Source of the DNA: an uncultured Acidobacteriota bacterium
GTDB taxonomy: Bacteria > Acidobacteriota > Thermoanaerobaculia > UBA5066 > Gp7-AA6
DNA: 64,000 nucleotides
Assembly (NCBI GenBank): GCA_963764715.1
Contig: CAVXTP010000013.1
Span: 64,001-128,000 of the forward strand
Direction: 5' to 3'
In this document: one piece after another, positions 36,936 through 64,000 of the stretch
Layout of the letters: every line of letters begins with the position of its first letter
How positions within the stretch are numbered: position 1 is the first letter of the stretch
Program-made: the position numbers and the translations under genes
Notes under the pieces: generated by a model
Database searches by the model: none
What the model was told of the DNA's origin: nothing
What the model saw: only the letters and a program-made list of their open reading frames with translations

Positions 36936-39691
36936 ATGCGCCTTCCCCGGGGGCTCGCGGGCGTTCTCTGGTCTCTCCTGCCGTCGCTCTCCTTCGCCGC
37001 CACCTTCACCGTCAACTCGAACAACGATCTCGACGACGGCGCCTGCAACGCCACCCACTGCTCGCTGCGCGAGGCGATCGTCGCGGCGAACGCCACGCTG
37101 GGGGCGGACACGATCCGGTTCGTGATCGGCTCGGGACCGAAGACGATCCAGGTCGCGTCGGCCCTGCCGACGATCACCGATCCGGTGACGATCGACGGAA
37201 CGACGCAGCCGGGCTTCGTGTCGGCCCCGATCATCGAGCTCGACGGCTCGGTCGCAGGCGCCGGCGCCGTCGGCCTGCACGTCACGGGGGGCGCGAGCCT
37301 CGTGACGGGCCTCGTCATCAACCGGTTCGTGCCGGCCTTTCCGGCGACGGGCGGCCACGGGATCGTGCTCGAGACGGGCGGGGGCAACGTCGTGCGCGGC
37401 TGTTACGTCGGCACGAACCTCGGCGGAACCGCGGCGCTCGCCAATGGCGGCGACGGCGTCCAGATCGTGGCGTCCTCGGACAACGTCATCGGGCGGACGA
37501 ACGCGTCCTTCCGGGAAACCTCCTGTCCGGCAACTCGAGCGCCGGGGTCCGGATCTCGGGCGCGGGCGCCGACCGGAACACGATCGCCGGCAACCGGATC
37601 GGGACGAACCCCGCGGGAACGGCCGCGGTCCCGAACTCGGCCGCGGGCGTCGTGATCATGTCGGGCGCCGACAACGTCGTCGGTTCGGGGATCGCGGGGG
37701 ATACGCTGGTCTCCGGCAACGGCGGCGACGGCATCGTGCTCTCCGGATCGGCCACGGGCGCAGTCGTCACCAACTGCTACGTCGGGACGAACGCGACCGG
37801 AGCTGCGGCTCTCGGCAACGTCGGCCAGGGAATCAACCTGGCGGGCGTCTCGAACAACACCGTCGGGCCGGGCAACGTGGTCTCGGGCAACGGGCAGAGC
37901 GGCGTGCTCCTGATCAGCGGGTCGAGCGGCAACACGGTGGCCGCCAACTTCGTCGGTCTGAACGTGCTCGGCACGGCCGCGATTCCGAACGCCCTGAACG
38001 GCATCATCCTCTCCAACGCCGCCGACAACACGGTCGGCCCCGGAAACGTCGCCAGCGGCAACGGCACGAACGGCGTGCGGCTGCGAACGGGGGCCTCCGG
38101 CAATCTCGTCCGGGGCAATCTCGTCGGCGTCAACGCGGCGGGGACGGCGGCGGTCCCCAACCTCACCGAGGGGGTCCAGCTCAACGACGGAGCCACCGGG
38201 AACACGATCGGCGGCCCGGGGGCGGACCGGAACGTCATCTCCGGCAACGGCTCGAACGGCGTTCTCGTCGTCGACGCGACGACGGCGGGCAACTTCATCG
38301 AGGGCAACTTCATCGGCTCCAACGCGACCGCCTCCGCGGCGATCCCGAACGCGGGCAACGGCGTCGCGGTGATGGGGGGCGCGAACGGAACCCAGATCGG
38401 CGGGACCGCCGCGGGAACGAAGAACGTGATCGCCTTCAACGGGGGCCGGGGCGTCTGGATCGAATCGGGAGACGGCAACTCGATTCTCGGCAACAACCTC
38501 GCGTTCAACGGGGCGCTCGGGATCGACCTCGGCCCGATCGGCGTGACGCCGAACGACGCGGGCGACCCGGACCCCGGCGCGAACCTGCTCCAGAACTTTC
38601 CGGTGCTCTCGGCGGTCCTCCTCGACACGGCCTCGACGCAGATCCAGGGCTCGCTCAACAGCTTCGCGAGCTCGAGCTACCGCCTCGAGTTCTTCTCGAG
38701 CGTCGTCTGCGACACGTCCGGCTACGGGCCGGGGCAGCGGCTCCTCGGGGCGGCCGACCGCAAGACCGATCCGGGCGGCAACGTCGCCTTCGTCGCGACG
38801 CTTCCGACGGCGGCGCTGGGGCCGTGGATCACGGCGACGGCGACGGACTCGGCCGGGAACACCTCGGAGCTCGCGGCCTGCCTGGCGATCCCGGGGCCGA
38901 CCGTGACGTCGATCCTTCCGACCTCGGGGCCGGCCGGCGCGGCGACGGCGGTCGTCATCGCCGGAACGAACTTCCAGAACGGAGCGACGGTCAAGATCGG
39001 GGGCGCGGCGGCCGGCGGGGTTTCCGTCATGAGCGGCTTCGAGGTCGACGCCTCGACGCCCGTCCTGTCGCCGGGGACCCTGAACGACGTGACCGTGACC
39101 AATCCGAGCTCTCTCGCCGGGGGCCTCTCGGCGGGGTATCTCGCCGACTTCAACGACGTCCCGCAGGACAACATCTTCCACGACGACGTCGAGACGGTGT
39201 TTCGCGCGGGCATCACCGCCGGCTGCGGCGCGGGCAACTTCTGCGTCGCGAGCGCCGTGACGCGGGCCCAGATGGCCGTCTTTCTGCTGAAGACGGAGCA
39301 CGGCTCGGCCTACCTGCCGCCCAATTGCACGGGCGTCTTCGACGACGTTCCCTGCCCTTCGCCTTTCGCCGACTGGATCGAGCAGCTTTCCTCCGAGGGG
39401 ATCACGGCCGGCTGCGGCGGCGGGAACTACTGCCCGGCGAGCCCCGTGCGCCGCGACCAGATGGCGGTCTTTCTGCTCAAGACGAAGAACGGCTCGGCCT
39501 ACGTTCCGCCGGCCTGCGCGGGCGTCTTCGGCGACGTCGCTTGCCCCGGTCCCTTCACGGACTGGGTCGAGCAGCTCTACGCCGACCAGATCACCGGCGG
39601 CTGCTCGGCGTCGCCCCTTCTGTATTGTCCCGGTTCCTCCAACACGCGCGGGCAGATGGCGGTGTTTCTCGTGAAGACCTTCGGGCTCTAG
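36936..39691 (+). pseudogene. CSLREA-domain / beta-helix / IPT / triple SLH-like surface protein split by a single frameshift near 37510
   Basis: MRLPRG signal, TFTVNS..D..DG.C...HCSLREAI; beta-helix repeats (GN.IG....G....PN) continue in the -1 frame from GNLLSGNSSAG into ORF 37652-39691. Confidence 0.8.
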
Positions 39692-46671: not shown

Positions 46672-47246
46672 GCTCGACCGGTCTCGATCGCGTCCTGCCG
46701 GGCGGCGAACGGCTCTCCCTTCACTCGACCCGGATCCGCGCGACCCGAGAGCGCGTGTGGGAAGCGATCCTCGCGCGGGACCTCGCCAGCTCGGCGGCGT
46801 CGAAGGCGCTTCTCGCCCTGCGCGGATATGGCGGCCGGGCGTTTGCGCAGAGCAAGGGAACGTTCCCCGAAAAGCTCCAGCGCTTCGGCTTCACGCGGCT
46901 CGAGGAGGATCCCGGGCGCGAACTCGTCTTCGGCATCGCCGGGAAGTTCTGGCGCTACGACGGAGGGCTGCGGCCGATCGCGGACCGGGCCGCGTTCCTC
47001 GGATTCGCCGATGAGGGCTGCGTGAAGGCCGCGTGGAACCTCCGGGTCGAGGAGAGCGGCAGCGGCGCCTTCGAGCTCTCGACCGAGACGCGTATCCAGT
47101 ACTTCGGCGCCGCCGCCCGCCGGAAGTTCCGCCTCTACTGGACGCTCATCCGCCCGTTCTCGGGCGCGATCCGGATCGGCCTGCTGCGCGGGATCCGGCG
47201 CCGAAGTGATGGCGGAGGCTCGAACGCGCGTTACTCGGGAGTATGA
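46668..47246 (+). CDS. Hypothetical protein (DUF2867/SRPBCC-like); start uncertain
   Basis: LLALRG, PGRELVFGIAGKFW, KAAWN, LSTETR, RRKFRLYWTLIRPFSG.IR; only plausible start is CTG overlapping the upstream TGA. Confidence 0.7.
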   Translation: MSSTGLDRVLPGGERLSLHSTRIRATRERVWEAILARDLASSAASKALLALRGYGGRAFAQSKGTFPEKLQRFGFTRLEEDPGRELVFGIAGKFWRYDGGLRPIADRAAFLGFADEGCVKAAWNLRVEESGSGAFELSTETRIQYFGAAARRKFRLYWTLIRPFSGAIRIGLLRGIRRRSDGGGSNARYSGV

Positions 47247-49573
47247 GTCAGGGTGAACCGGGTGATTTCAGAGGCGGTCAACTGCCCCTGCGAATCGGTC
47301 TGCGCCACAGTCGCGGTGGCCCACGGGTCTTTGCGGCCGGTCAGCGACCAGTGTTCTTGGAAGTACGGGTACGCTCCTCCGAATAAGGTTCCCCAGACAT
47401 ATCGATCCGCGAAATGGAAGACCCCGTATTCCTTGAGCCAAAAATCAGCGAAGGAAAAGGAAATGCACGTAACCGAAAACGCGTCGTGCGGAGTTCCCGT
47501 ATCGTAGAGCAGTTTGACGTTTTGGTCGCCGCCCCAGTACATCCTCGCTTTGAAAGTCGAAGGGGTCGACGAGAGCAGCACGGGGCAGTCGTCCGGGGCG
47601 CAACACGCCTCCAGGTGCTCGTGAAGGATTGGACCTTCTCCGGAGATCTCGAGCCCATTCTGAGTCGAGTGACCGCGGAGCGTCACCGACTCGGCGACCA
47701 CCCGCGCGCTCTCGCTGAACGGGCCCCCGGTCTCCGCGATCGACGAGTCGAACGTGAGCTTGAACGTGAGGCACTTGAACACCTGGTCGATCTCGGACTG
47801 GAGTTCCGGGAACCGTTGACTGAGGCCGCCAGATCGGGCGACCTTGATGATCGGGAATACGCTGAAGATGGCGTGCGGGTCCTCCGAGCACCGCTCGTGG
47901 ATCTTCGACAATGCCAGCGAGATCATCCTCTTCCAGAGTGAGTAGATTTCTTCGGTTCGGCCGGGAAAGACCGTCTCCATGGGTGCCCCGACCGCGATGG
48001 GGACCTCGAGCACCCAGGCGTTCGTTTGATGGATGAGGTCGACGACGCGAGCCGGCTCGCCGTCGGTGGCCTCCATCTGGATTTTGAGGGCCTGGTATCC
48101 CGCGTCCAGGCGCTGGACCACACTGACTTCGATCCTCTTGAATTCGGGTCCACCGATCGACGCCGCGGCGGCGCGACCGTCGCGGAGGAAGGGTGAGATC
48201 GCGTGGCTCAGCAGGTCGCCGTCGGCAACCGGCTCACGCTCGAGCCGGGACTGCCGCTCCGAATCCGTTCCGCGGGCGACGCCGTAGCCTCCAAGATGAA
48301 AGATTTCCAGCTTGAGGTCCCCCGACGTCGGCCAGGGTGGAAAGAGGAACAGGTCCTCGCCCGACCCGTTCCACGCGACAGGGGTCTCTTCCGAACCGGC
48401 GAGGGGCGCCGCGGTGTGAATCGACAGCGTCGCGCCCTGAAGCAGCGGTGTTCCGGAAGGCTGGATGTCTACGCCGGCGACGAGTCCCCCCGCGAAGGGG
48501 AAATGACCGACGGCTCCGACCGGCGTCATCGTCACGACTTCGTCGAAAAGAAGTGAAGTCGCCGGGATGTCCAGCGTGAAGACGGTGCCGTCGGCCGCGG
48601 TCGCGGAAAGCGACCCTCCCTCGAGGGCGGGAATCGGGGCGGACGCGGCGCGCGGGGAGTGGGTCTCGACCGTGATTCCGTCGCCGCCCCGGAACGCCGC
48701 GGTGTCACCGACCGATGCGAATGTGCTCGCAGGATTGCTGTAGGAGCGCATCGCACCGCTGATCGTGTCGACCACGTTGATCGTGTACGCGACGTTCGAG
48801 AGCGCTCCGAAGAAGACCCAGAACTTGCCGCTGATCGACCGGGCGTCGAGGACCTTGATCATCAACTCGACATTGGACGGCGAAAAGAACCAGAAATAGC
48901 CCGTGTCGTTGGTGAGCTGGACGGGCTGCCCGGAGCCATGGCGGCCGTGGGAATCCGTCCAGTGGACTTCCAGACGGAAGCGGCAACTCGTCAGGAAAAG
49001 ATTCGGTCTCCCGTCGGCACATGGCGTGAACGCGGCTGCGGATTCGGAGGCGGCCTTCATGCTTTCGTGCGGAACGGCGTCGATGAACCCCTGGATCTCG
49101 TCGAGCGAGCCAGGCGGCGCCGCGGTGCCGGCAACCTCGACCGTTTGCGCCGTCGGCGGCGCGTCGACGGCCCCTTCGAACGCGCTGGTGTCGCCGACGC
49201 TCGCGAACTGGCCGAGGGGGTTGTGATAGTTCTTGACCGCGCCGGTGACCGTGTCGGTGACGGTCAGGTCGAACTCCACGGATGTGAGCGCCCCGAAGAA
49301 GACCCAGTACTTCCCGCTGAGGGCCCGGGCGTCGAGGACCTTGACGACGAGCTCGATGTTGGCCTCCGAGAAAAACCAGAAGTAGCCGGTGTCGGCGGTG
49401 ATCGGGACGGCCTGGCCGACGCCGGTGCGGCCCCGGGAGTCGCGCCACGAGACGTCCACCTCGAAGCGGGAAGCGTTGAGGCAGAGGGTCGTGGGCGACG
49501 GGGCGCACGGAGCGGCGGCGAGCCGGTTCGAGGCCAGGAGCAGCGAGGCGGCGATCAGGAGAGCCTTGCGCAT
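47231..49573 (-). CDS. Exported protein with two tandem Cys/aromatic repeats and divergent C-terminal region
   Basis: Signal peptide MRKALL; repeat RF..EV.W.D..GR.G.GQ.V..T.DTGYFWFFS..N.EL..KVLDAR..SGK.WVFFGAL..V.....V.DT..GA...Y.NP...FASVGDT.AF occurs twice; SD AGAGGGA. Confidence 0.85.
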   Translation of the reverse strand: MRKALLIAASLLLASNRLAAAPCAPSPTTLCLNASRFEVDVSWRDSRGRTGVGQAVPITADTGYFWFFSEANIELVVKVLDARALSGKYWVFFGALTSVEFDLTVTDTVTGAVKNYHNPLGQFASVGDTSAFEGAVDAPPTAQTVEVAGTAAPPGSLDEIQGFIDAVPHESMKAASESAAAFTPCADGRPNLFLTSCRFRLEVHWTDSHGRHGSGQPVQLTNDTGYFWFFSPSNVELMIKVLDARSISGKFWVFFGALSNVAYTINVVDTISGAMRSYSNPASTFASVGDTAAFRGGDGITVETHSPRAASAPIPALEGGSLSATAADGTVFTLDIPATSLLFDEVVTMTPVGAVGHFPFAGGLVAGVDIQPSGTPLLQGATLSIHTAAPLAGSEETPVAWNGSGEDLFLFPPWPTSGDLKLEIFHLGGYGVARGTDSERQSRLEREPVADGDLLSHAISPFLRDGRAAAASIGGPEFKRIEVSVVQRLDAGYQALKIQMEATDGEPARVVDLIHQTNAWVLEVPIAVGAPMETVFPGRTEEIYSLWKRMISLALSKIHERCSEDPHAIFSVFPIIKVARSGGLSQRFPELQSEIDQVFKCLTFKLTFDSSIAETGGPFSESARVVAESVTLRGHSTQNGLEISGEGPILHEHLEACCAPDDCPVLLSSTPSTFKARMYWGGDQNVKLLYDTGTPHDAFSVTCISFSFADFWLKEYGVFHFADRYVWGTLFGGAYPYFQEHWSLTGRKDPWATATVAQTDSQGQLTASEITRFTLTHTPE

Positions 49574-49590
49574 GGTGTTCCCTCTGGCCA

Positions 49591-49620
49591 ACACGCGCAA
49601 GGGCGGGCCGGCCGGGGTCA
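49591..49620 (-). promoter_or_regulatory. Putative ECF promoter, copy B
   Basis: TGACCC-N15-TGCGCGTGT, 18 nt upstream of ATG 49573. Confidence 0.65.
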
Positions 49621-49628
49621 GGTTCGGG

Positions 49629-49675
49629 AAAGAAAAGAGCCGCCGGGAGGTCCGAGGAAACCTCGTTTCGGCGGC
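49629..49675 (-). terminator. Probable intrinsic terminator after beta-helix/SLH gene
   Basis: GCCGCCG...CGGCGGC stem with inner CGAGG/CCTCG hairpin followed by TCTTTTCTTT on minus strand. Confidence 0.6.
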
Positions 49676-49723
49676 GATGGTCCGGCGACTCGAACCCGAA
49701 ACGTCTTCGTCCGGGGCTCCCGG

Positions 49724-52051
49724 CTACTGCAGGTGGAACGTCTTGGTCAGGAACACCGCCATCTGCCCGCGGGTGTTGGGATTGAGCGGACAGTAGTTGC
49801 CCCCTCCGCACCCTCCCGTGATCCCCTCGGCGGCGAGCTGCTCGATCCAGTCGGCGAACTGCGACGGGCACGGGACGTCCGGGTAGTCCCCGTTGCAGGG
49901 CGGCGGCAGGTAGTTCGGGCCGTGCTCGGCCTTCAGCAGGAAGACGGCCATCTGGTCGCGGCGGACGGGGTTCTGCGGGCAGTAGTTGCCGCCGCCGCAC
50001 CCTCCCGTGATCCCCTCGGTGGCGAGGGCCTCGATCCAGTTGGCGAACGTCGACGGACAGGGGACGTCGGAGAAGGTCCCCGTGCACGGCGGGGGAACGT
50101 AGCAGAGGCCGTGGCGGCCCTTTAGCAGGAAAACGGCCATCTGCTGGCGGAGCGTCGGGTCGTTGACGCCGTAGAGCCCGTTGCCGACGCCGACCGTGAT
50201 CGCGTTCGAGACGAGGGTCGTCACGAAGTTGTAGAACTGCTGGCTCGGCGGCACGTCCAGGAAGTCCACGATCCAGGCCTTCTTGAGGGTCCCCGAGGTC
50301 GCGTCCGTGTTCGTGACCACGATGTCGTTGACGGTGGCGGCGGGCAGCAGGGGCGCCGTGACCGTCATCGTCGTCTCGTCGGTGACGTTGGGGCCGGTGC
50401 CCGCGACGCCGCCGAACGTGACCGTCGCGCCCGCGACGAAGTGGGTGCCCGTGAGGGTGACGACCACGCCGCCGGCGGGCGGCCCCGAGCGCGGGCTCGA
50501 CGCGTAGATGACGTTCTGCGAGAACTCGGACGTGTTGCCCGACGGGTCCGTCGCCGTCAGGGAGATCGGCGGCTGCGTCGGGGCGTTCGCGTCGTTGACG
50601 ACGAGGTCGAACGGCGCGTCGCCCGCTCCGTTGGTCGTGACCTGCTGCGTTCCCAGGTAGTACGCGCTCTGGAGCAGGTCGCGCGGGCGCGGCGTGCACG
50701 ACGGGCTCTCGAAGACGTCGAGGTCGAAGGTCGTACTCGGGCTCGACTTGAGGATCCCGTGCACCGTGACGGTCGTCGCGCCGTAGTCGACCGACGAGAT
50801 GAACGGGAAGTTCTGGAGCTGATTGGCGCCGGTGTCGCCGTCGCCGGCGTCGTTTTTCGTGACGCCGTCCGGGACGTTGTCGATGCCGAGGCGCTGGCTG
50901 AAGAAGATCGGGTTGGCGCGGATCGCGTTGCGGACGCCGTCGTTGTACACGCCGGTCTGGTTGAACGCGATCGCGTTGGCCTCCCCGGGTGCGACGCCGC
51001 CGATGAGCGCGTCGGTCGCCGCCAGGCTGAGATAAACGCCCGCCCGTCCGTTTCCGAGCGGTTTCGTGGCCGTGGGGTCCGTTCCGATTGTGTTGCCCTT
51101 GACGACGGAGCCGACGGTCCCTAAGTAGATCCCGTCGAGCTGGTTGCCGGAGATGAGGTTTCCTTCCCCGGCGTTGAAATCGCCGCCGATCACCAGGCCC
51201 GGGTGGACTGTCGCGTAGATCCCCCACTGGTTGGGGAGCGACTCCGTCCCCGCAGCGTTCGTTCCGATGCGATTGCCCTGGATCGTGGTGCCGCTGCCGT
51301 TGATGACGAAGATGCCCTCGCCGGTGCTTCCGGAGACGAGGTTGCCCTGGCCCGGGTCCGACCCGCCGATCAGGAAGCCCGTGGTTCCCGTCAGGCTGAT
51401 GCCGCGGCCGTTGGAAATCGGCGCGTTCCCGGTGATCGACGTTCCGATGAGGTTGCCCTGGATGACGTTCGCGCCGCCGCCCGTCGACTGGATGCCGGTG
51501 GTGTTGCCGCTGATGAGGTTCCGGGCTCCCGCGGCGGAGCCACCGATCACGTTGCCGGTCGCGCCCGACGTGATGACGACTCCCGTCCCGTTCGGCACGG
51601 CGATCGTCCCGGTCGGATTCGTTCCGATGAAGCAGGCCTCGAGGTGGTTGTCGTTCGACTCGATCTGGATGCCGGCGGAGAAGTCGTTGACGCAGACGCC
51701 GCGGATCGTGTTCCCGCCGGCTCCCGTCATGCGGAGACCCGCGCCGCTGAACGTGGAGACCTCGATCAGGGGCGTGCCGGCGTAGCCCGGCTGGGTCGTG
51801 GCGTCGAGGGTCGTCTGGCCGGCCAGCGGCGGAAGGATGCTGAGCGGCAGGATCTGGAAGGGGCCGGCGCCCGGGATGTTGAAGTCGATCGTGTCGGGCC
51901 CCGCGTTGGCGTTCGCGTCGAGGATCGCCTGGCGAAGCGACCCCCCTCCGGTGTCATTCGTGTTCGTGACGGTGAACGTGGCGGCGTGCCCGACGGCGCC
52001 CGCGAGCGCGAAGCCCCATGCGGCGGAAGCGAGCCACCGGGCGCGCCTCAC
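49724..52051 (-). CDS. Exported beta-helix / IPT-TIG / triple SLH-like surface protein
   Basis: GTG start overlapping RDD stop (GTGA); signal peptide; ATFTVTNTND.G.GSLRQAI..AN; GN.IG repeats; GNTSEFS; [13 protein letters not shown]...[11 protein letters not shown] repeats. Confidence 0.9.
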   Translation of the reverse strand: MRRARWLASAAWGFALAGAVGHAATFTVTNTNDTGGGSLRQAILDANANAGPDTIDFNIPGAGPFQILPLSILPPLAGQTTLDATTQPGYAGTPLIEVSTFSGAGLRMTGAGGNTIRGVCVNDFSAGIQIESNDNHLEACFIGTNPTGTIAVPNGTGVVITSGATGNVIGGSAAGARNLISGNTTGIQSTGGGANVIQGNLIGTSITGNAPISNGRGISLTGTTGFLIGGSDPGQGNLVSGSTGEGIFVINGSGTTIQGNRIGTNAAGTESLPNQWGIYATVHPGLVIGGDFNAGEGNLISGNQLDGIYLGTVGSVVKGNTIGTDPTATKPLGNGRAGVYLSLAATDALIGGVAPGEANAIAFNQTGVYNDGVRNAIRANPIFFSQRLGIDNVPDGVTKNDAGDGDTGANQLQNFPFISSVDYGATTVTVHGILKSSPSTTFDLDVFESPSCTPRPRDLLQSAYYLGTQQVTTNGAGDAPFDLVVNDANAPTQPPISLTATDPSGNTSEFSQNVIYASSPRSGPPAGGVVVTLTGTHFVAGATVTFGGVAGTGPNVTDETTMTVTAPLLPAATVNDIVVTNTDATSGTLKKAWIVDFLDVPPSQQFYNFVTTLVSNAITVGVGNGLYGVNDPTLRQQMAVFLLKGRHGLCYVPPPCTGTFSDVPCPSTFANWIEALATEGITGGCGGGNYCPQNPVRRDQMAVFLLKAEHGPNYLPPPCNGDYPDVPCPSQFADWIEQLAAEGITGGCGGGNYCPLNPNTRGQMAVFLTKTFHLQ

Positions 52052-52524
52052 CGGGCCTCCACGACGATCGAGTCGGCGATCAGGTCGTGCAGCGCTCTCC
52101 GGTCCCGATGGAGGAGCGCCACGATCGAGTCGATCAGGAGAACGTTGCCGGCCGTGATGCCGACCAGGCGCAGCAGGGCCCGTCCCATGCCGATCGCCTG
52201 CCCGTCTTCGATCCTCCCGACGCGCGCCACGCGCAGCCCCATGATCTTCTTTCCGGGGGTCGCGCCCTCGAGACCCCAGAAGTAGACGAAATAGCCGGTG
52301 ACGACCACCGCGGCGAGCGCGACGAGCCCCCAGGTTTCCGCTTCCGCGGCCCGGGGACCGAAGATCGCGAGCGCCATGTGGGCCACCAGTCCCGCCACCA
52401 GCGCGACGCTCGCCACGATCACCCCGTCGATCGCCGTCGCGGCCAGCCGCACGGCCAGCCCGGCCGATGCCGGGGGATGCACCACCGCGAGAGATCCCGG
52501 AAGCTCCAGCGTCCTCGAGCTCAT
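52048..52524 (-). CDS. RDD family membrane protein
   Basis: AGL.VRLAA..ID, YF.YFW...GATPGK..MGLRV, RALLR, RRALHDLIADS.VV; SD GGAGGAGG. Confidence 0.92.
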   Translation of the reverse strand: MSSRTLELPGSLAVVHPPASAGLAVRLAATAIDGVIVASVALVAGLVAHMALAIFGPRAAEAETWGLVALAAVVVTGYFVYFWGLEGATPGKKIMGLRVARVGRIEDGQAIGMGRALLRLVGITAGNVLLIDSIVALLHRDRRALHDLIADSIVVEAR

Positions 52525-52596
52525 CGCCTCCTCCTCCACAGGTCCCGAAGCGCCGGCCGCCGCGTCCCACCGCCGCGACCCTGGAGACCCTGTCCA

Positions 52597-52626
52597 CAAC
52601 GCGCAGGAACGGGCGGGATGGGATCA
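52597..52626 (-). promoter_or_regulatory. Putative ECF promoter, copy C
   Basis: TGATCC-N15-TGCGCGTTG upstream of RDD gene. Confidence 0.65.
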
Positions 52627-52630
52627 AATG

Positions 52631-52662
52631 CCGCGGCCGTGCCAATCGGGTCACGGCCGCGG
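52631..52662 (-). terminator. 11-bp perfect hairpin after SLH gene (terminator or stabilising stem)
   Basis: CCGCGGCCGTG-N10-CACGGCCGCGG; only weak U tract. Confidence 0.45.
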
Positions 52663-52677
52663 TGCCAGGGAAAAGGG

Positions 52678-55077
52678 CTACGGCAGGCGGAACGTCTTCA
52701 CGATAAACACGGCCATCTGACCCCGCGTATTCGCGTTGGCCGGGCAGTAGTTCCCGCCGCCGCAGCCGCCCGTGATCCCCTCCGCGGCGAGCTGCTCGAT
52801 CCATCCGGCGAAAGTCGAGGGACAGGGGACGTCGGCGAACGTGCCCGAGCAGTCGGGAGGGACGTAGGACGCCCCGTGCTCCGCCTTGAGGAGGAAGACC
52901 GCCATCTGGTCCCGGCGCACCGGATTGGTGGGGCAGTAGTTCCCGCCGCCGCAGCCGCCGGTGATGCCCTCGGCGGCCAGGCCCTCGATCCAGGCCGCAA
53001 ACGTGGACGGGCACGGGACGTCGGGGAAGGTGCCGGCGCAGGGCGGCGGCACGTAACAGAGCCCGTGGCGCGCCTTGAGGAGGAAAACCGCCATCTGCTG
53101 GCGCAGCGTCGGCTGGTCCACGCCGTAGAGGCCGCCGCCGACTCCGACGGTGATCGCATTGGACACCAGGGTCGTCACGTACGAGTGGAACTGGTGGATC
53201 TGGGGCACGTCGAGGAAGTCCGCGACCCAACCCTTGATCAGGGCGCCGGTGGTGCCGTCCGGCGTCGTCGCGACGATGTCGTTGACGGTTCCGGGCGCGA
53301 GCGCCGGCGACGTCGTGTAGAGCTGGTGATCGTTCACGAAGGTGATCGGCACCGCCGGGCCGCCGATCGCGATGGCGGTGGGGTTCGCGAAGTCGGTCCC
53401 GTTGATGGTCAGCGTCGTCCCGCCGGCCGCCGGTCCGGACGCCGGCGACATGGTGAAGATGATCCGCTGCGAGAACTCCGACGTGTTGCCGGACGGGTCC
53501 GTGGCGGTCACCCCGATCCGGGCGCCGTTTTCCACGACCACGGGCAGGGTGACGTCGAAATCGAAGTGCCCGGCGCCGTCGGTCGTGATCTGCGAGGAAC
53601 CCAGGTAGGTCTCGCCCTCGTTGAAGTCCCTCGGGAAACGGGTGCACGCCGCGTTGGCGTAGAAGTCGAAGGTGTACTGCGTCGACGGGACGCTGTTGAA
53701 CTTGCCGAGGACCTCCACGTCGGACGCGCCGTAGACGACCGACTGGACGATCGGGAAGTTCTGATAGTTGTTCGGGCTCACGTCCGCGTCGAGCGGATCG
53801 TTCGGCGTGGGGCCGTCGCCGTTCAGGTCGATGCCGAGCTGCTCGTTGTCGTGGATCGAGTTTCCGCGGATCGTGACCTGGTTCGCCGAGGACTGGACGA
53901 GCACGCCGACGGGGACGCTGAAGAGCAGCACGCCGCTGTTGTAGGCGATGACGTTGCCCTGGCCGGGTCCGGTTCCTCCGATGACGACGCCGGTGACGTT
54001 GGCGGTCGAGATCCCCGTGACGTTCGGCAGCGGCAACGCACCGGTGACGTCGGTCCCGATCTTGTTTCCGTAGATCGTCGTGTTGGTGGCGAAGTTGTAC
54101 ACGTAGATGCCCATCTGCGTGTTGCCGGAGATGACGTTGCCCTCGCCGGCGCCCGCGCCGCCGATCTCCACGTCGCCGCCCCCCGAGTCGTTGATGCCGA
54201 GCGACTGGTGGCCGAGGGAGAACGTGCCGGTCACGTCCGTGCCGATGAGATTCCCCCGGATGATGATTCCGGACCCGCCGCTCATGCCGATTCCCCCGCC
54301 GAGGTTTCCCGAGATGACGTTCCCCGCGCCCGCGAAGCTTCCGCCGATCGCTGCGCTGTCGCACCCCGAGAGGCTGATCCCGGTCCCGTTGGGAATCGAG
54401 ACCGTTCCGGTGACGTCGGTGCCGATCAGGTTGCCCTGGACGACGAGGCCCTGAGAGATCTCGCAACCGATTCCTCCGGCGTCGTTGCCCGAGATCAGGT
54501 TGCGGTCCGCGGCCGTCAGCCCGCCGATCGTGTTGTTGGGCGAGGTAATCAGCCGGATCCCCTGGCCGCCCGTGGACGCGTCGGCGGTGCCCGCCGCGTC
54601 GGTGCCGATGTAGCAGCCCTCGACGACGTTGCCGCCGGCGCTGGTGAAGAGAATCGCCGTGGAGAAGCCGTTCAGCACCAGGGCTCGGAGCGTGCTGCTG
54701 CCGGCGGAGATCGAGAGCCCCGAGGTCTGGCTCCCGTGAACCTCGATCAGCGGTGCTCCCGCGTACCCCGGCTGCGTGGTCCCGTCGATCGTCACGGGCG
54801 AGGTGACCGTCGGCAGCGACGTGAGTGAGACGTTGATCGTCTGCACGCCCGCGCCGGGGATGTTGAACGCGATCGTGTCGGGCCCCGCGTTGGCGTTGGC
54901 GTCGAGGATCGCCTGGCGAAGCGACCCGGCGCCGCTGTCGGCGGTGTTCGTCACGGTGTACGTCGCCGCCTGCACGCCCGTGCTGCCGAGCGCGAGGAAC
55001 AGCGCGGCCAGGAACCCGGCCTGGTGGATGGCTCCGCGCGGGCCCCAGGGTCGACCTCCGGTGGCTTGCGTGTCCAT
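52678..55077 (-). CDS. Exported beta-helix / IPT-TIG / triple SLH-like surface protein (paralog of 49724-52051)
   Basis: SD GGAGGGA; [25 protein letters not shown]; same domain order and near-identical C-terminal module. Confidence 0.9.
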
Positions 55078-55153
55078 TTGTCCCTCCTGCCTCTTCCTCG
55101 ATTTACGAAGGCGGGGGTCGCGGGTTCCGGACGGGGCCCCGGCCATCGTTCGG

Positions 55154-55183
55154 ACACGCGCAGGAGCCAGAAAGACAGGCTCA
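55154..55183 (-). promoter_or_regulatory. Putative ECF promoter, copy A
   Basis: TGAGCC-N15-TGCGCGTGT in the divergent region next to the ECF gene. Confidence 0.65.
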
Positions 55184-55244
55184 ACGGGGGGGCGGGGGCG
55201 TGTTCCCGCTGTGATGTAATTCGCCCCAAAGGACTTCCGAGCCG

Positions 55245-55805
55245 ATGGCGGATCCGACCGAGCCGGACGTGACAGCCCTGCTCAAGGAGTGGAGCGGAGG
55301 GGATCGGAGAGCGCTCGAACGCCTGATGCCGCTCGTGTACGACGAGCTGCGCAAGCTCGCCGCCTCCTACCTGCGCGAGGAACGGCCGGACCACACCCTG
55401 CAGCCGACCGCGCTGGTCCACGAGGCCTACATCCGCCTGACGAACCAGCGGGACGTCGTCTGGCAGAACCGGGCCCACTTCTTCGGCATCGCCGCCCAGA
55501 TGATGCGGCGCATCCTGGTCGATCATGCCCGCAAGCGCCAGGCCGCCAAGCGGGACGCCGCCGCCTGGCGCGTCGCGACCGACGTCGACGACGCGGCCGA
55601 CCGGGCGCCGGAGCTGCTCGCCCTCGACCGGGCCCTCTCGAGCCTCGAGGAGATGGACCCGCAGCAGGCGAAGGTCGTGGAGCTGCGCTTCTTCGGAGGA
55701 CTCACGGTCGAGGAGACGGCGGAGGTCGCGGGGGTCTCGCCCGCCACCGTCAAGCGCGAGTGGCGCACGGCGAAGGCCTGGCTTCGCCGCGAGATCGGCG
55801 CCTAG
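55245..55805 (+). CDS. ECF sigma factor, TIGR02999 (kinase-associated) family
   Basis: [67 protein letters not shown]. Confidence 0.95.
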
Positions 55806-55813
55806 CGTCGGTC

Positions 55814-58342
55814 ATGGCGAGCCGCGTGCCCCCGGAGGCGTGGCCGAGAGTCAAGGAGATCCTGGACGCGGCCCTGGACGTCCCGACCGGGGAGCGGGGC
55901 GCCTTCATCGCCTCCCGCTGCGCGGGGGACGAGGCCCTGCGCCGCGAGGTCGAGTCGCTGGCCTCCGTCTCGGAATCGGGCTGGAGCTTCATCGAAAGCC
56001 CCGCGGGCGGCCGCGTCGCCGCGCTCTTCGAGGATTGGGTGCCGCCGTCGCGGGTCGGGGAGCGCATCGGCGCCTACCAGGTCCTCTCCGAGCTCGGCCA
56101 CGGCGGCATGGGGATGGTCTATCTCGCCCGACGCGCGGACGACGAGTTCCAGAAGACGGTCGCGATCAAGCTCATCCGGCCCGGCATGGCGAGCGACTTC
56201 GCGCTGCAGCGCTTCCGGAGCGAGCGGCAGATCTCGGCCTCCCTCGAGCACCCCAACATCGCGCGGCTCCTCGACGGCGGCGCCACTCCGGGCGGCGAGC
56301 CGTACTTCGTCCTCGAATACATCGAAGGGGAGCCGCTGATCGAATACTGCGACCGGCGCCGGCTGACCGTCGCGGACCGCCTGCGGCTCTTCGACGACGT
56401 GTGCGCCGCGGTCCAGTACGCGCACCAGAACCTCGTCGTCCACCGCGACATCAAGCCCAGCAACATCCTGGTGACCTCGGAGGGCGTGCCGAAGCTCATG
56501 GACTTCGGGATCGCCAAGCTCCTCCAGCCCGACGGCGCGCCCGCGGCCGACGGGGAGACGGGCACGTTCCTCCGGATGATGACCCCCGACTATGCGAGTC
56601 CCGAGCAGATCCGGGGCGAGCGCATCACGACCTCGAGCGACGTCTACGCGCTCGGGGTCGTACTCTACGAGCTGCTCGTGGGCCGCAAGCCCTACCACGT
56701 GACGGGGCCGGAGCCGGCGGAGCTGCTTCGCGTCGTCTGCGAGCGCGACCCGGAGAAGCCGAGCGTCGCCTCGGGGTCCCGGGAGCTGCGGGGCGACCTC
56801 GACGCCATCGTCCTCAAGGCGATGCGCAAGGAGCCGGAGCACCGGTACGCCTCCGTCGGCGAGCTCGCCGCCGACCTTCGCCGCTACCGGACCGGCGCAC
56901 CGGTGCTGGCGCGCCGCGGCACCTTCTCCTACCGCGCGGCCAAGTTCGCGCGCCGCCACCGCGTCGCGCTGGCCGGAGTCGCCCTGCTCGCGCTCGTCCT
57001 GGCGGGGGGCGTCCTGGCGACGCTGCGCGAGGCCCGCCGCGCCCGGGCGGCCGAGGCGCGCGCGCAGCGCCGGTTCGACGATGTGCGCCGTCTCGCGAGC
57101 TCGTTCCTCTTCGAGTTCCACGACGCGATCCGGGACCTGCCCGGCTCGACCCCGGCGCGCGCCCTCATCGTGAAGCGGGCGCTCGAGTACCTCGACGACC
57201 TCGCGCGCGAGTCGGCCGGCGACCGCGCGCTGCGGCGCGAGCTCGCGGGGGCGTATCTCAAGGTCGGCGACGTGCAGGGCAACGCCTTCATGGCGAACCT
57301 CGGAGACGTCCCGGGCGCCTTGCAGAGCTACGGCAAGGCGATCGCGCTGCTCGAGCCCGTCGTGGCCGCGGGCGGCGCCACGGACGCCGAGCAGGCGACC
57401 CTCGCGACCGCGTATCTGACCGGGGGCGGCATCCGGCTCGTGGCGGGCGACGCACGCGAAGCCGTGGCGATGGCGGAAAAGGGGCTGCCGCTGCGGAAGG
57501 GCCTCGCCGCTCGCCATCCCGGAGATCCCGCGGCCGCCCGGGACCTCGCGCAGGCCTGGCAGTTCTACGGCTTCTACCTGACGGCGGCCGAGCGCCCGGA
57601 CGAGGCCTTCGAGGCCCTGGGGAAGCAGGCGGAGATCCTGCGGGCGCGCCTCGCGGCCGCTCCGAAGGACCGCGCGGCGCGGCGCAGTCTCGGCCAGAAT
57701 CTCTACCTCACGGGCGAGGCCCTGCGGAGCCGCGGCGACGCCGAGGGCGCGCTCAAGGCGTTCGACGAGGCGGTCGTTCTCGGAGAGGGCCTCCGGAAGG
57801 AAGACCCGTCGAGCATCCAGCTCCAGCGGGACCTCGCGTACACGTACACCGCGGTCGGAGGCTTCTACGAGGCGCGGAGCGATCACCCGGCCGCCCTCGA
57901 GAACTTCCAGAAGGCGCTCGGCCTCTTCGAGTCCATGGCCGCGGCGGACGCGAAGAGCGTGGACGGCCGGCTCGGAGTGGCCATGACGCGGCACAACATC
58001 GGTCTCCAGCGGGCCGGTCTTCACGATGCGTCCGGGGCCCTGAAGGAGTACGAGGAGGCCCGCCGTCTCTACGAGCCGATGGTCGCGGCCGATCCGAGCA
58101 ACGCCTGGGTCGAGGGGTCGCTTGCCGACCTCTACCTCGCCATCGGGAAGGCGCTCGAGGAGCTCGGCCGGGACCCGGGCGACGAGCCGTGCGCCCTCTT
58201 TCTGAGGTCGAACGGGATCTACGAACGGCTGCGCGCCGCCGGCCGGCTCAGCTCTCTGAGCGCCGAGGGATCCGCGGAGGCGGCCGCCGCGGCCAGGCGC
58301 TGCCGGGGAAGCGCGGCGCAATCCTCTTTGCCGGGACGCTGA
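55814..58342 (+). CDS. Membrane Ser/Thr protein kinase with extracytoplasmic TPR domain
   Basis: LGHGGMGMVY, VAIK, HPNIARLLDGG, HRDIKPSN, DFGIAK, YASPEQ, DVYALG; TM helix; TPR-like repeats. Confidence 0.95.
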   Translation: MASRVPPEAWPRVKEILDAALDVPTGERGAFIASRCAGDEALRREVESLASVSESGWSFIESPAGGRVAALFEDWVPPSRVGERIGAYQVLSELGHGGMGMVYLARRADDEFQKTVAIKLIRPGMASDFALQRFRSERQISASLEHPNIARLLDGGATPGGEPYFVLEYIEGEPLIEYCDRRRLTVADRLRLFDDVCAAVQYAHQNLVVHRDIKPSNILVTSEGVPKLMDFGIAKLLQPDGAPAADGETGTFLRMMTPDYASPEQIRGERITTSSDVYALGVVLYELLVGRKPYHVTGPEPAELLRVVCERDPEKPSVASGSRELRGDLDAIVLKAMRKEPEHRYASVGELAADLRRYRTGAPVLARRGTFSYRAAKFARRHRVALAGVALLALVLAGGVLATLREARRARAAEARAQRRFDDVRRLASSFLFEFHDAIRDLPGSTPARALIVKRALEYLDDLARESAGDRALRRELAGAYLKVGDVQGNAFMANLGDVPGALQSYGKAIALLEPVVAAGGATDAEQATLATAYLTGGGIRLVAGDAREAVAMAEKGLPLRKGLAARHPGDPAAARDLAQAWQFYGFYLTAAERPDEAFEALGKQAEILRARLAAAPKDRAARRSLGQNLYLTGEALRSRGDAEGALKAFDEAVVLGEGLRKEDPSSIQLQRDLAYTYTAVGGFYEARSDHPAALENFQKALGLFESMAAADAKSVDGRLGVAMTRHNIGLQRAGLHDASGALKEYEEARRLYEPMVAADPSNAWVEGSLADLYLAIGKALEELGRDPGDEPCALFLRSNGIYERLRAAGRLSSLSAEGSAEAAAAARRCRGSAAQSSLPGR

Positions 58343-58383
58343 CCGCACCCCGCCGGTATGATCCGGCCGCTCGAGGAGGCCCC

Positions 58384-58881
58384 ATGAAGTGTCTCGGCGG
58401 TCCCGGAGTCTGGCTCGTCGCAGCGGCTCTGTCCGCGCAGTCGGCCGACGGCGTCTTCGCGCAGGGCGCGGTCGGGGCGGTGCTGGACGCCTGGCACGGG
58501 GCGGCCGCGGCCGCCGACGAGGAGAAGTACTTCTCGTACTTCACGCCGGACGCCGTCTTCCTCGGCACCGACGCGACGGAGCGCTGGACGCGGGACGAAT
58601 TCCGGAAATGGGCGCATCCCTACTTCGCGAAGGGAAAGGCCTGGAATTTCCGGACCGTCGAGCGGTGGATCTCCTTTTCCCCCGACCGGAGCGTGGCCTG
58701 GTTCGACGAGAGGCTCGACACGCCCAACATGGGGCCCTGCCGCGGCTCCGGGGTCCTCGTGCGCGTGGGCGACGGATGGAAGATCGCGCAGTACAACCTG
58801 TCGATCCCGATTCCCAACGACCTCGCCGACGGCATCGTGAAGCAGATCGCCGCGGAGGCGGGCTCGAAGAAAGGCCGATGA
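58384..58881 (+). CDS. SnoaL-like / NTF2-family exported protein
   Basis: LD.WH.AAA.AD...YF......VFLGTDATERW, AWFDE.L, GSGVL, WKIAQYNLS; SD GAGGAGG. Confidence 0.88.
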   Translation: MKCLGGPGVWLVAAALSAQSADGVFAQGAVGAVLDAWHGAAAAADEEKYFSYFTPDAVFLGTDATERWTRDEFRKWAHPYFAKGKAWNFRTVERWISFSPDRSVAWFDERLDTPNMGPCRGSGVLVRVGDGWKIAQYNLSIPIPNDLADGIVKQIAAEAGSKKGR

Positions 58882-62046: not shown

Positions 62047-64000
62047 TTAGAACCCGAACGCCTTGACCAGGAACACCATCATCTGCCCCCGGGTGTTGGG
62101 ATTGGAGGGGCAGTACAAGAGCGGCACCGCCTGGCAGCCACCCGTCACGCCCTCCGCGTAGAGCCGTTCGATCCAGGGAGCGAACGGGTCGCCGACGGGA
62201 ACGTCCCCGAAGACCCCCGTCGCCGGCGGGGGCACGTACGCGCTCCCGTACCTGGTTTTGAGCAGGAACGCCGCCATCTGCCGGCGTGTGACCGGACTGT
62301 CGGGACAGTAGTTTCCGCCCCCGCAGCCCCCGGTGACGCCGAGCCCCGCGAGCTCCTCGATCCACGGGGCGTAGGGGCTCGACGCCGGGACGTCGGCGAA
62401 AACCGTTCCGGTGGCGGGCGGCGGCACGTGGTCCGCGCCGAGCTCGCTCCGCAGGAGCAGGACCGGCATCTGCTTGCGCGGGAGCGCGAGGTCGCGGCAG
62501 AAGTTGCCGAGGTGGCACCCCGCGGTGATCCCGGCGCGGAACAGCGTCTCGATGAACGGGTGGAACGGGTCCCCCTGCGGCACGTCGAGAAAGTCGGCGA
62601 ACCATCCCTTCGGAAGGGTCGACTCGCTCGTGTCCGGGTTCGTCACGACGACGTCGTTGAGCGTTCCCGGCGACAGCGGCGGAGTCGACGCCGTGACGAG
62701 CGCCGCGCTCGAGACCGAGACGCCGGTCGCCGGCACTCCGCCGATCGAAACCGCCGCGCCCGGCTGGAAGCCCGCGCCCGTGATCGCGACCCCGGTCCCT
62801 CCCGCCGCCGGACCGGAGGACGGAGCGATCGCCAGGTCCGCCGCCGCCCCGGCCTCGTAGGCCCCGAGGTCGGGCGAGGCGTCCCGCGGGCGGCCGAGGA
62901 TGTCGTCCGGAGGCATCGAAGCGGGATCGGCCTGGCCGACCGCCGGACTCCCGGCGCCGATCGAGCCGTAGGTGGCCACGAGGCGCTCGAACTCCTGCCG
63001 GATCGTGGCGCTGCCGCTCACAAACGCCGTCCCGTTCCAGCGCGGGAGCACGATGCCGGCCTGGCCCGGCAGCTGCGGGTCGGCGACCACGGCGTGCGCG
63101 TCGTCGACGAGCGGGCTCACGAGATCGCCCCCCGGGATCGCGGCGCCGCCGTTCCAGTAGAGGTTGCGGTCGAGGACAAGGCCCGTGACCTCGGCGGGCG
63201 TCCCGTCGGAGAACTCGTTGGTCCCGCCCGCGGCCTCCGCCCCCATCGTCCCGGTGGGGTCCGACCACACGTTGTTCCGGAAGGCCACGTTCTCGTTGAC
63301 GGGGTTGGAGCCTTCGCGGTTCACCCGGCAGGCGTACGCGAGCGAAGGCAGGTCGCCGACGACGGTGTTGGCGCGGAACGTGACGTCCCGTCCGCCCTTG
63401 ACGCCGAACGCGGCGCGCATGTCGTTGGCGGAGTTGCCGAGCATCAGGTTGTTCTCGACGAGGATCGACCGGCCCTCGAAGTAGGGCATCCCGTCCTCGC
63501 CGACGAGGGCGAAGTTGGAGCCGCTCGAGCCCTCCCAGTTCAGGAAGACGTTGCGCCGGACGGTGATGCGCTCGTCGCCGATCTGACCGTCGTCGCCGGC
63601 GTTGGAGTCCTTCATGACGATGAAGGAGCTCGTGTCGTTGGCGTTGGACCGCCCGCTGCCGGCGAAGTCGTTGAAGAAGATGTTGTCCTGCACGAGCACG
63701 TCGGTCACGCTGTTGATGTCGATGTGCTCGTCGGAGCCGGCCTGGTTGTAGAAGACGTTGTTCTCCACGGTCACGAAGCGGGCGCCGTTGTTGATCTTGA
63801 GCAGGTCGTTGTTCCAGGAGTCGTGGAACACGTTGTCCCGGATCGTGACGTTTTCGGCCCAGAGCCCTCCGGCCTGCTGCACCTGCATGACGAGGGCGCC
63901 GGCCCCCGCCCCCGTGTGGCGGAGCTCGAAGCCCTCGAGGACCACGTTCTTCGAACCGAAGAGCTTGACGACGGTGCCGGAGTACTGGAGGACCGCGCGG
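62047..64000 (-). CDS. Right-handed beta-helix / IPT / triple SLH-like surface protein, 5' end beyond window
   Basis: Asn-ladder repeats ([19 protein letters not shown]), DILGRPR...[42 protein letters not shown]. Confidence 0.88.

Follow-up and report, generated by a model that had tools for sequence, protein, structure and literature searches.

The window, by which we mean the whole 64,000-nt stretch of DNA analysed here, comes from an uncultured Acidobacteriota bacterium and contains a gene for a sigma factor of the extracytoplasmic function (ECF) type that is followed by a gene for a Hanks-type Ser/Thr kinase. In the region 47231-58342, three transcription units on the minus strand are divergent from this plus-strand ECF/kinase pair, and the question that this locus raises is which promoter the sigma factor recognizes, and which genes it might control. 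As described below, each of the three units is preceded by the same bipartite motif, and this motif is co-inherited with the ECF clade. We consider it quite probable that this TIGR02999-type (ECF43-type) ECF recognizes TGAYCC-N15-(Y)TGCGCGT as its cognate promoter, with TGAYCC as the -35 box and (Y)TGCGCGT as the -10 box, and that it governs a kinase-gated regulon.

A bipartite motif with fixed spacing

A sequence-only reading of the window had proposed that TGANCC-N15-TGCGCGT, with exactly 15 nt between the two boxes, stands ahead of all three divergent units. The three copies were found on the minus strand where this reading had placed them (Table 1), apart from two extra bases after TGCGCGT that were included in its coordinates. 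They are the only three matches in the window, and none of 100 dinucleotide-preserving shuffles contained any match. Copies B and C were also said to lie just downstream of hairpins that end the previous gene. This stands for the strong hairpin after gene A, which ends a few bases ahead of copy B; after gene B, a terminator-like structure is present as well, but its 111-nt stretch is unremarkable overall. Neither hairpin was listed in a terminator scan, and a scan for the sigma-70 consensus over positions 47000-58600 gave no promoter-like sites.

The genome assembly (26 contigs, 4,363,139 bases, 70% G+C) contains seven matches to TGANCC-N15-TGCGCGT, each on its contig's minus strand, and none to the backwards pattern. 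When the half-sites were counted genome-wide at spacings 10 to 21, their numbers were 0, 2, 0, 0, 0, 7, 0, 0, 0, 0, 1, and 0, compared to 0-1 per spacing in the reversed control. The enrichment is therefore specific to spacing 15, since the other spacings give only 0-2, and the motif does not occur at background frequency in this GC-rich genome, the outcome that the sequence-only reading had named as contradicting its proposal. The four exact sites outside the window all lie just ahead of genes for signal-peptide proteins, and three further sites with one mismatch were added to the list (Table 1). At the resulting 10 own-genome sites, a start codon follows 19-120 nt downstream, the genes code for secreted proteins, and the spacers are unrelated to each other, as had been suggested for the window copies.

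The B. subtilis SigW promoter consensus is TGAAAC-N16-CGTA, and canonical ECF promoters, with a -35 box of the GAAC type and a -10 box of the CGT type, are bipartite with a fixed spacing, like the motif found here. The TGAYCC box resembles TGAAAC and GGAACC, and its distance to the -10 box is as in the SigW consensus, whereas the -10 box, (Y)TGCGCGT, differs from the canonical CGTC or CGTA. The motif could instead be an operator for a DNA-binding regulator, either a repressor or an activator. The centres of the half-sites are ~21 bp apart, i.e. two helical turns, which suits a protein on one face of the DNA, and the TGCGCGT half has a palindromic GCGC core. However, the two half-sites are dissimilar, their spacing is exact (seven sites at N15 versus 0-2 elsewhere), and their orientation toward the downstream gene is fixed at all 10 own-genome sites. 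The geometry and the TGAnCC box suit ECF promoters, and beside the motif the ECF-kinase pair is the only conserved regulator gene. We therefore regard an operator as an unlikely explanation.

The sequence-only reading had also suggested a check for enrichment ahead of SLH/beta-helix genes, and in this genome 8 of the 10 sites indeed precede paralogs of one beta-helix/TIG/SLH family. This would fit a functionless leftover of duplicated upstream regions, yet we hold such a leftover to be highly improbable, because the two boxes are exact where spacers and flanks are unrelated, 35 of the 43 paralogs lack the motif, and it also precedes unrelated genes, namely those for the RDD protein, the 780-aa protein, a 243-aa SLH protein, and small Pyrinomonadaceae proteins. 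Moreover, the motif is conserved across families of Acidobacteriota.

The motif follows the ECF across relatives

A set of 40 relatives provided 19 further loci of the genus with an ECF at 61-87% identity, which together with the window locus gives 20 genus loci. Rows of genome G030 were left out of every claim. The nearest named relatives of the ECF are found in metagenome-assembled genomes of Thermoanaerobaculia (Acidobacteriota), at 80-81% identity. In 16 of the 20 genus loci, all with an ECF at least 61% identical, TGANCC-N15-NGCGCGT lies on the strand divergent from the ECF, at a distance of 40-180 nt from its start; none of 10 loci of paralogous ECFs at 59% identity or less has it. A wider set of 80 loci (1.14 Mb) came from species outside this one, the majority of them Pyrinomonadaceae and further Acidobacteriota, with ECFs ~55-80% identical, and gave 21 motif matches versus none in the reversed control. 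Within 350 nt of the ECF in 110 loci, a set that contains two same-place pairs fetched twice (L005/L034 and L010/L032), the divergent strand matched all 12 positions in 25 loci and 11 of 12 in 18 loci, whereas the opposite strand never exceeded 10 of 12. The scan near TIGR02999-kinase pairs that had been proposed for relatives thus yielded 43 of 110 loci with at least 11 of 12 positions, against 0 of 110 on the opposite strand. The gene behind the motif varies within the genus between RDD, beta-helix, and 780-aa family genes (RDD comes first in at least six genus loci), and the ECF-kinase pair is constant.

Genomes with and without an ortholog of the ECF were also compared. The 16 genus genomes with an ortholog contain 63 strict sites, of which 12 adjoin the ECF; the eight genomes without one contain four, which by sequence and context are apparently conserved coding matches. 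Five well-assembled genus genomes without the ortholog were searched for the 780-aa and beta-helix families: no full-length 780-aa family member was found in these five, and no beta-helix match in three of them. Of the genomes lacking the ortholog, G018 carries ~10 beta-helix genes in an array and a few matches were seen in G005; no sites with at least 11 of 12 positions were found in the 54 kb fetched around the beta-helix genes of these two.

A cross-genome matrix was trained on 31 sites from other genomes only. Its top five matches in the own genome are known sites (32.7-25.8 bits), and two more known sites score 20.5 and 20.0 bits, compared to a maximum of 17.2 bits in the reversed genome. 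A further match at C16:61814 (21.3 bits) was dropped because it lies inside a coding region. Conservation extends to positions outside the search pattern, for example a pyrimidine preceding TGCGCGT at 39 of 41 distinct sites. In a quick tree, the motif-bearing ECFs were clustered, requiring 13 changes versus a shuffled mean of 33.5, with none of 500 shuffles as low. The proposal that the motif acts as the promoter of this ECF clade is in this way supported by comparison of the genus loci, the loci across the phylum, and the matrix scores.

Paralogous ECF-kinase pairs

The genome encodes five TIGR02999 ECF-kinase pairs, and two of the other pairs lie inside a long array of beta-helix genes (C21:349144 and C21:380881), each divergent from a beta-helix gene. 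The C21a-type ECF is 61% identical to the window ECF, and on the divergent side of ECFs of this type we found TGAC(C/A)C-N14-16-(C/A)(T/C)CGCGG in 7 of 20 fetched loci (see L184-L191) as well as in the own genome (C21:349015). Beside ECFs of the C21b type, TG(G/T)(C/T)CC-N12-17-..CGAG occurs in 6 of 20 loci. Neither the C21a nor the C21b motif was found on the other strand of the fetched loci. Taken together with the window motif, three ECF types therefore have one -35 box in common but distinct -10 boxes, a wider pattern that we regard as a lead.

These paralogs bear on the alternative that the motif is the promoter for a different sigma factor, a TIGR02999 paralog or another ECF, and that its adjacency to the window pair is a matter of conserved gene order only. 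With five pairs in one genome, and related motifs with the same -35 TGRYCC in use by paralogous types, cross-recognition is conceivable. Nevertheless, none of the other four own-genome pairs has the motif alongside, and the C21a and C21b types adjoin distinct -10 elements in the loci counted above. The motif tracks the orthologs of the window ECF despite changing neighbours, into other families of the phylum, and genus genomes that have other TIGR02999 paralogs but lack this ortholog have no upstream copies. A different sigma factor is thus, in our judgement, an improbable user of the motif.

Around the C21:380881 ECF, we observed TTGACC/CTGGCC-N14-TTGTCGAG, to which the C21b motif above is related, ahead of three paralogs (C21:370624, 375636, and 378258), and TTGTCGAG(A/T) divergent from this ECF (C21:380632 upstream region) and from its G018 relative (L027). 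A strict form of the C21a motif, TGAC[AC]C-N15-CTCGCGG, was rejected since it is not enriched genome-wide, with three matches versus 0-4 at other spacings.

The sigma factor and its putative phosphorylation site

The ECF is of the TIGR02999 type, as the sequence-only reading had it, scoring 226.6 bits (cut-off 126.15), and it also matches PF07638 (190.3 bits, cut-off 21.1). The 11-residue stretch quoted for it by that reading is present. Its immediate neighbours code for surface proteins and an amidohydrolase, and among these neighbours there is neither an anti-sigma gene nor an anti-sigma domain, in line with the absence of an anti-sigma factor claimed before. The region 2.2 tetrad reads QPTA in 61 of 112 distinct ECF relatives. 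Thr is at position three of the tetrad in 84 of the 85 relatives caught by the pattern, and one tetrad has an acidic residue (D/E). An alignment of 61 sequences shows no variation at Thr55 and conservation of at least 90% at Thr51. According to excerpts of two studies, ECF43 members have a QTTA-type motif in place of the acidic DAED, and a Thr of the region 2.2 motif in EcfP and EcfK is phosphorylated by the neighbouring kinase (PMC13147305, PMC8999054). Judged from TIGR02999, the Thr tetrad, and the kinase neighbour, the ECF/kinase pair is probably a new member of this known phospho-activated ECF43-type class, and by analogy Thr55 would be phosphorylated by the partner kinase. The mechanism of this class is already known, and what is added here is a predicted promoter and regulon, which are well supported.

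The ECF-kinase operon likely has a housekeeping-type promoter of its own, as suggested by the sequence TGATGTAAT upstream of the ECF (Table 1). By our reading, 17 of 21 genus loci have a corresponding TGnT(C/G)TAAT 25-35 nt ahead of the start of the ECF, and the remaining four have variants of it. In none of the 110 loci does a copy of the bipartite motif point at the ECF gene, so there is no sign of autoregulation, unlike most ECF groups, which are autoregulated according to the part of PMC7826278 that deals with this point. The lack of a motif toward the ECF, together with the conserved TGnT(C/G)TAAT, therefore fits a constitutive operon that would be controlled after translation.

The partner kinase

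The neighbour of the ECF had been described as a TPR kinase, and this description is correct: it is an intact Hanks kinase that has a single membrane helix and is rich in TPR in its C-terminal half. It consists of an ~85-aa N-terminal extension, a kinase domain at residues 88-344 (Pkinase match at 88-295/344 of 842 aa), a membrane helix at 383-405, and TPR matches at 496-779, and the catalytic motifs GHGGMG, AIK, HRDIKPSN, DFG, and SPE are intact. The best solved match is 9EED, the PknS kinase of Xanthomonas citri (E 5.5e-56), which covers residues 8-358 and thereby includes the N-terminal extension; the relevant section of its paper gives 9EED as PknS(1-364). A kinase lies downstream of the ECF in 93 of the 105 loci with enough flank. 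In the own genome, all five TIGR02999 ECFs are followed by a kinase, and these kinases are 48-59% identical to the window kinase, compared to 32-38% for ~65 others. As a side observation, the 4.36-Mb genome encodes ~70 Hanks-type kinase domains, many in tandem runs of 6-17 genes (e.g. C21:180776-229344, C1:38594-55082, and C23:23857-40284).

Weighing the evidence

Several results weigh against the cognate-promoter reading. In the remaining 4 of the 20 genus loci, no more than 9-10 of 12 positions match, and in 67 of the 110 loci there is no copy with at least 11 of 12 positions beside the ECF. With the cross-genome matrix, copy A, the nearest one to the ECF, reaches just 17.1 bits, which equals the reversed-genome maximum given above. 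In the quick tree, the motif-bearing ECFs do not form one clade, and since the relatives are not independent, the motif counts overstate the support. Another factor that is carried in the same module would be compatible with the co-inheritance as well. The one-mismatch genome scan gave 51 matches versus 32 in the control, so these matches are mostly noise, arising by chance or in coding sequence. The motif is carried by only 8 of the 43 beta-helix paralogs. Finally, a complex prediction of kinase residues 1-370 with the ECF gave a score of 0.57 (best of three controls 0.00), and of 80 solved complexes 58 attain the mark used, as do 2 of 110 mismatches; only 7 of the 80, but both mismatches, do so at 0.60 or below. 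The runs share at least 38% of contacts and the partner has a predicted local distance difference test (pLDDT) score of at least 61, so that this model lends weak support to binding.

A proposed circuit and its known relatives

According to the reading that we prefer, the ECF-kinase operon would be made from its own extended -10-type promoter, without autoregulation. The free sigma factor is proposed to be inactive, because region 2.2 has QPTA where other ECFs have acidic residues. The kinase would span the membrane, with a cytoplasmic catalytic half and the TPR half on the outer side. On an envelope or external cue, it would phosphorylate Thr55, and the phosphate could provide the charge needed for binding to core RNA polymerase. 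The holoenzyme would then initiate a few bases past TGCGCGT at ~10 units in the genome, and at this locus would switch on the genes for beta-helix/SLH protein A, for the RDD protein with beta-helix/SLH protein B, and for the 780-aa protein. That the kinase senses an outside cue, and the label 'contact system' that the sequence-only reading gave to the locus, are steps that we only infer.

The closest comparison is the ECF43 system EcfK/PknS of Xanthomonas citri, in which, like here, the ECF gene is followed by that of a transmembrane Hanks kinase of ~840 aa. PknS, as described in PMC13147305, and the window kinase are alike in having an N-terminal extension of ~83-87 aa that is followed by a kinase domain, a single membrane helix, and C-terminal TPR. 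Thr51 of EcfK corresponds to the region 2.2 Thr of the window ECF, although the EcfK tetrad is QATE, whereas QPTA lacks an acidic residue. An excerpt of the same paper reports that EcfK T51A stays active through a second site, T106. The host phylum differs, and so do the targets, which are SLH-anchored surface proteins here and a type VI secretion system for EcfK/PknS. EcfP of Vibrio parahaemolyticus, also ECF43, is inactive alone and has no DAED in region 2.2 but STTA, with the second Thr phosphorylated, in the account given in parts of PMC8999054; the window ECF has QPTA with an invariant Thr. Both lack an anti-sigma factor, and the regulon and the cue differ, EcfP/PknT being linked to a polymyxin response.

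To our knowledge, phospho-activated ECFs have been studied in only a few Proteobacteria. In the literature searched, which did not extend to the supplements of PMC7826278 or to Iyer et al. 2020, we found nothing on an Acidobacteriota ECF-kinase regulon, and no description of promoters or regulons of phospho-activated ECFs in other phyla. The present locus provides a sharp promoter code of 13 bases, ~10 units that form a candidate regulon, and a clear putative phospho-site, which makes a reporter test straightforward for an uncultured lineage. It would tie this sigma/kinase class to the control of an expanded family of SLH-anchored surface proteins, and it bears on envelope remodelling in Acidobacteriota.

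A more tentative idea, which we think is possible but rather doubtful, is that the paralogous phospho-activated pairs are parallel kinase-gated channels, each of which switches a subset of the surface coat in response to its own outside cue. The terms of this idea are five pairs, a common -35 TGRYCC, the -10 codes TGCGCGT, CTCGCGG, and nnCGAG, and three pairs inside beta-helix arrays. If true, this would amount to a signal-driven switch of the surface repertoire built from ECF43-type modules, in which the TGAYCC-N15-TGCGCGT promoter of one channel is conserved across Acidobacteriota.

The candidate regulon and its products

The sequence-only reading had described a local regulon for surface proteins. 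A candidate regulon is supported by at least 10 sites that carry the motif, but it is not purely local, as seven of them lie outside the window. Sequence and gene context thus define a candidate regulon of ~10 units, three local and seven elsewhere, nearly all with secreted and most with SLH-anchored products. That the two beta-helix genes are among the predicted targets stands as well, but they are part of a paralog family with 43 members, the majority of which have no motif. These paralogs share the N-terminal signature FTVTNT.DSG.GSLRQAI, and most of them are in one C21 array. This array extends over ~105 kb (C21:314967-419782) and comprises ~35 beta-helix/TIG/SLH paralogs on one strand, many of them 15-90 nt apart. 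A dyad-enrichment count upstream of the 43 paralogs recovered only the coding 3' ends of upstream paralogs. By eye, ATAGACTC recurs 40-60 nt before the start codons of motif-less C21 paralogs (e.g. C21:325648, 402967, 414930, and 419743), and may be a housekeeping -10 box.

Another 55 strict sites were fetched from 19 genus genomes, and the downstream genes were classified. They include 12 beta-helix genes, six of the 780-aa family, four of a TPCR..DTR family, and two of a PATR-like family; the other 31 sites precede none of these four families and are mostly in conserved coding sequence (read-through frames). Based on this content, the local gene set appears to be the conserved core of the regulon. 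In two relatives, L127 (G004:C92) and L144 (G011:C8), strict copies precede genes that, judged from the N-terminal sequences, code for an FtsX-like permease and an ATP-binding cassette (ABC) ATPase, and that may be further members. In Pyrinomonadaceae and relatives (L037, L043, L047, L049, L052, L054, L058, L061, L062, and L071), the gene behind the motif, divergent from the ECF, codes for a protein of ~85-110 aa with the conserved stretch ARVFGCWH..MSRPFS.

Proteins A and B each combine a right-handed beta-helix with a TIG domain and three SLH repeats, with SLH matches of 49 and 55.7 bits (cut-off 20.8), and they are predicted to be SLH-anchored surface proteins. Scoring of 150 out of 318 candidates gave 141 SLH matches in the genome, which also encodes two CsaB-like pyruvyl transferases (PF04230), so SLH anchoring seems to be a main route of surface display in this organism.

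The 780-aa protein is one of more than 1,900 unnamed 'hypothetical' proteins that form a family without a Pfam model. It had been called 'variable-tipped', and this agrees with the family, in which the N-terminal repeats are highly conserved and the C-terminal half is variable. A confident AlphaFold2 model (pLDDT 89.6, predicted template modelling (TM) score 0.84) comprises two N-terminal beta-sandwich repeats, a ZU5-like part at residues 307-437, a helical region, and a variable beta-rich C-terminus. The tentative assignment of residues 307-437 as ZU5-like is based on this model: VIA-align gave Z scores of 11.2 to 6m3q_E (root-mean-square deviation (rmsd) 3.3, 128 aligned), 10.7 to 3ud1_A, and 10.5 to 3f59_A, and Foldseek matched this part to 4d8o with a probability of 0.95; there is no Pfam match. 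In the ESM Atlas, the protein gave unnamed clusters only, and a 0.77 lead to a cluster with ZU5 in 41% of its members. Foldseek found no global match for the whole model (TM ~0.1). Residues 601-780, which lie in the variable half and contain conserved Cys residues, weakly resemble autotransporter beta domains, with Z scores of 8.3 to 3qq2_A (rmsd 4.3, 147 aligned), 7.6 to 3aeh_B, 6.7 to 4mee_A, and 6.6 to 1uyo_X, where 6.6-8.3 is a range that the tool calls common. Invariant Cys residues are seen across the family, and the N-terminal repeat of ~115 aa is also present in other proteins of relatives.

Layout of the locus

The features of the locus, and the motif sites elsewhere in the genome, are listed in Table 1. 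The start codon assigned to protein A is an ATG preceded by AGGAGGG, and the GTG start of protein B overlaps the stop codon of the RDD gene (GTGA).

Table 1. Genes, motif copies, and other elements of the locus (window positions), and motif sites on other contigs (contig:position)
Feature	Position	Strand	Remarks
ECF sigma factor, 186 aa	55245..55805	+	TIGR02999 / PF07638; region 2.2 QPTA; Thr55 codon 55407-55409
Hanks-type Ser/Thr kinase, 842 aa	55814..58342	+	starts 9 nt past ECF stop
Beta-helix / TIG / 3x SLH surface protein A, 799 aa	52678..55077	-	profile matches
RDD-family membrane protein, 158 aa	52048..52524	-	leads transcription unit B; PF06271, 73.8 bits
Beta-helix / TIG / SLH surface protein B, 775 aa	49724..52051	-	profile matches
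780-aa secreted protein, unnamed family	47231..49573	-	no Pfam or NCBIfam match
Motif copy A, TGAGCC-N15-TGCGCGT	55156..55183	-	61 nt from ECF start; 78 nt before protein A start codon
Motif copy B, TGATCC-N15-TGCGCGT	52599..52626	-	74 nt before RDD start codon; 25.8 bits (cross-genome matrix)
Motif copy C, TGACCC-N15-TGCGCGT	49593..49620	-	19 nt before start codon of 780-aa protein; 20.5 bits (cross-genome matrix)
Extended -10-like element, TGATGTAAT	55212..55220	+	25 nt before ECF start
Strong hairpin after gene A	52631..52662	-	-29.9 kcal/mol, z -4.2; 0/200 shuffles as good
Terminator-like stem GCCGCCG...CGGCGGC then UCUUUUCUUU, after gene B	49639..49675	-	111-nt stretch overall z -1.2
Exact motif sites	C7:67605, C21:317521, C21:417479		ahead of beta-helix paralogs
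Exact motif site	C12:68344		ahead of gene for 243-aa protein with terminal SLH repeat
One-mismatch motif sites	C7:61178, C21:410511, C14:195153		directly ahead of further beta-helix paralogs

Elsewhere in the window, a third paralog of the beta-helix/SLH type, with 46% identity to protein A, lies at 36966-39688 on the plus strand, and a further SLH-bearing gene at 62053-62835 on the minus strand, both without the motif. The region is flanked by genes for radical S-adenosylmethionine (SAM) enzymes, a lipid A acyltransferase, and an amidohydrolase, which are unrelated to it.

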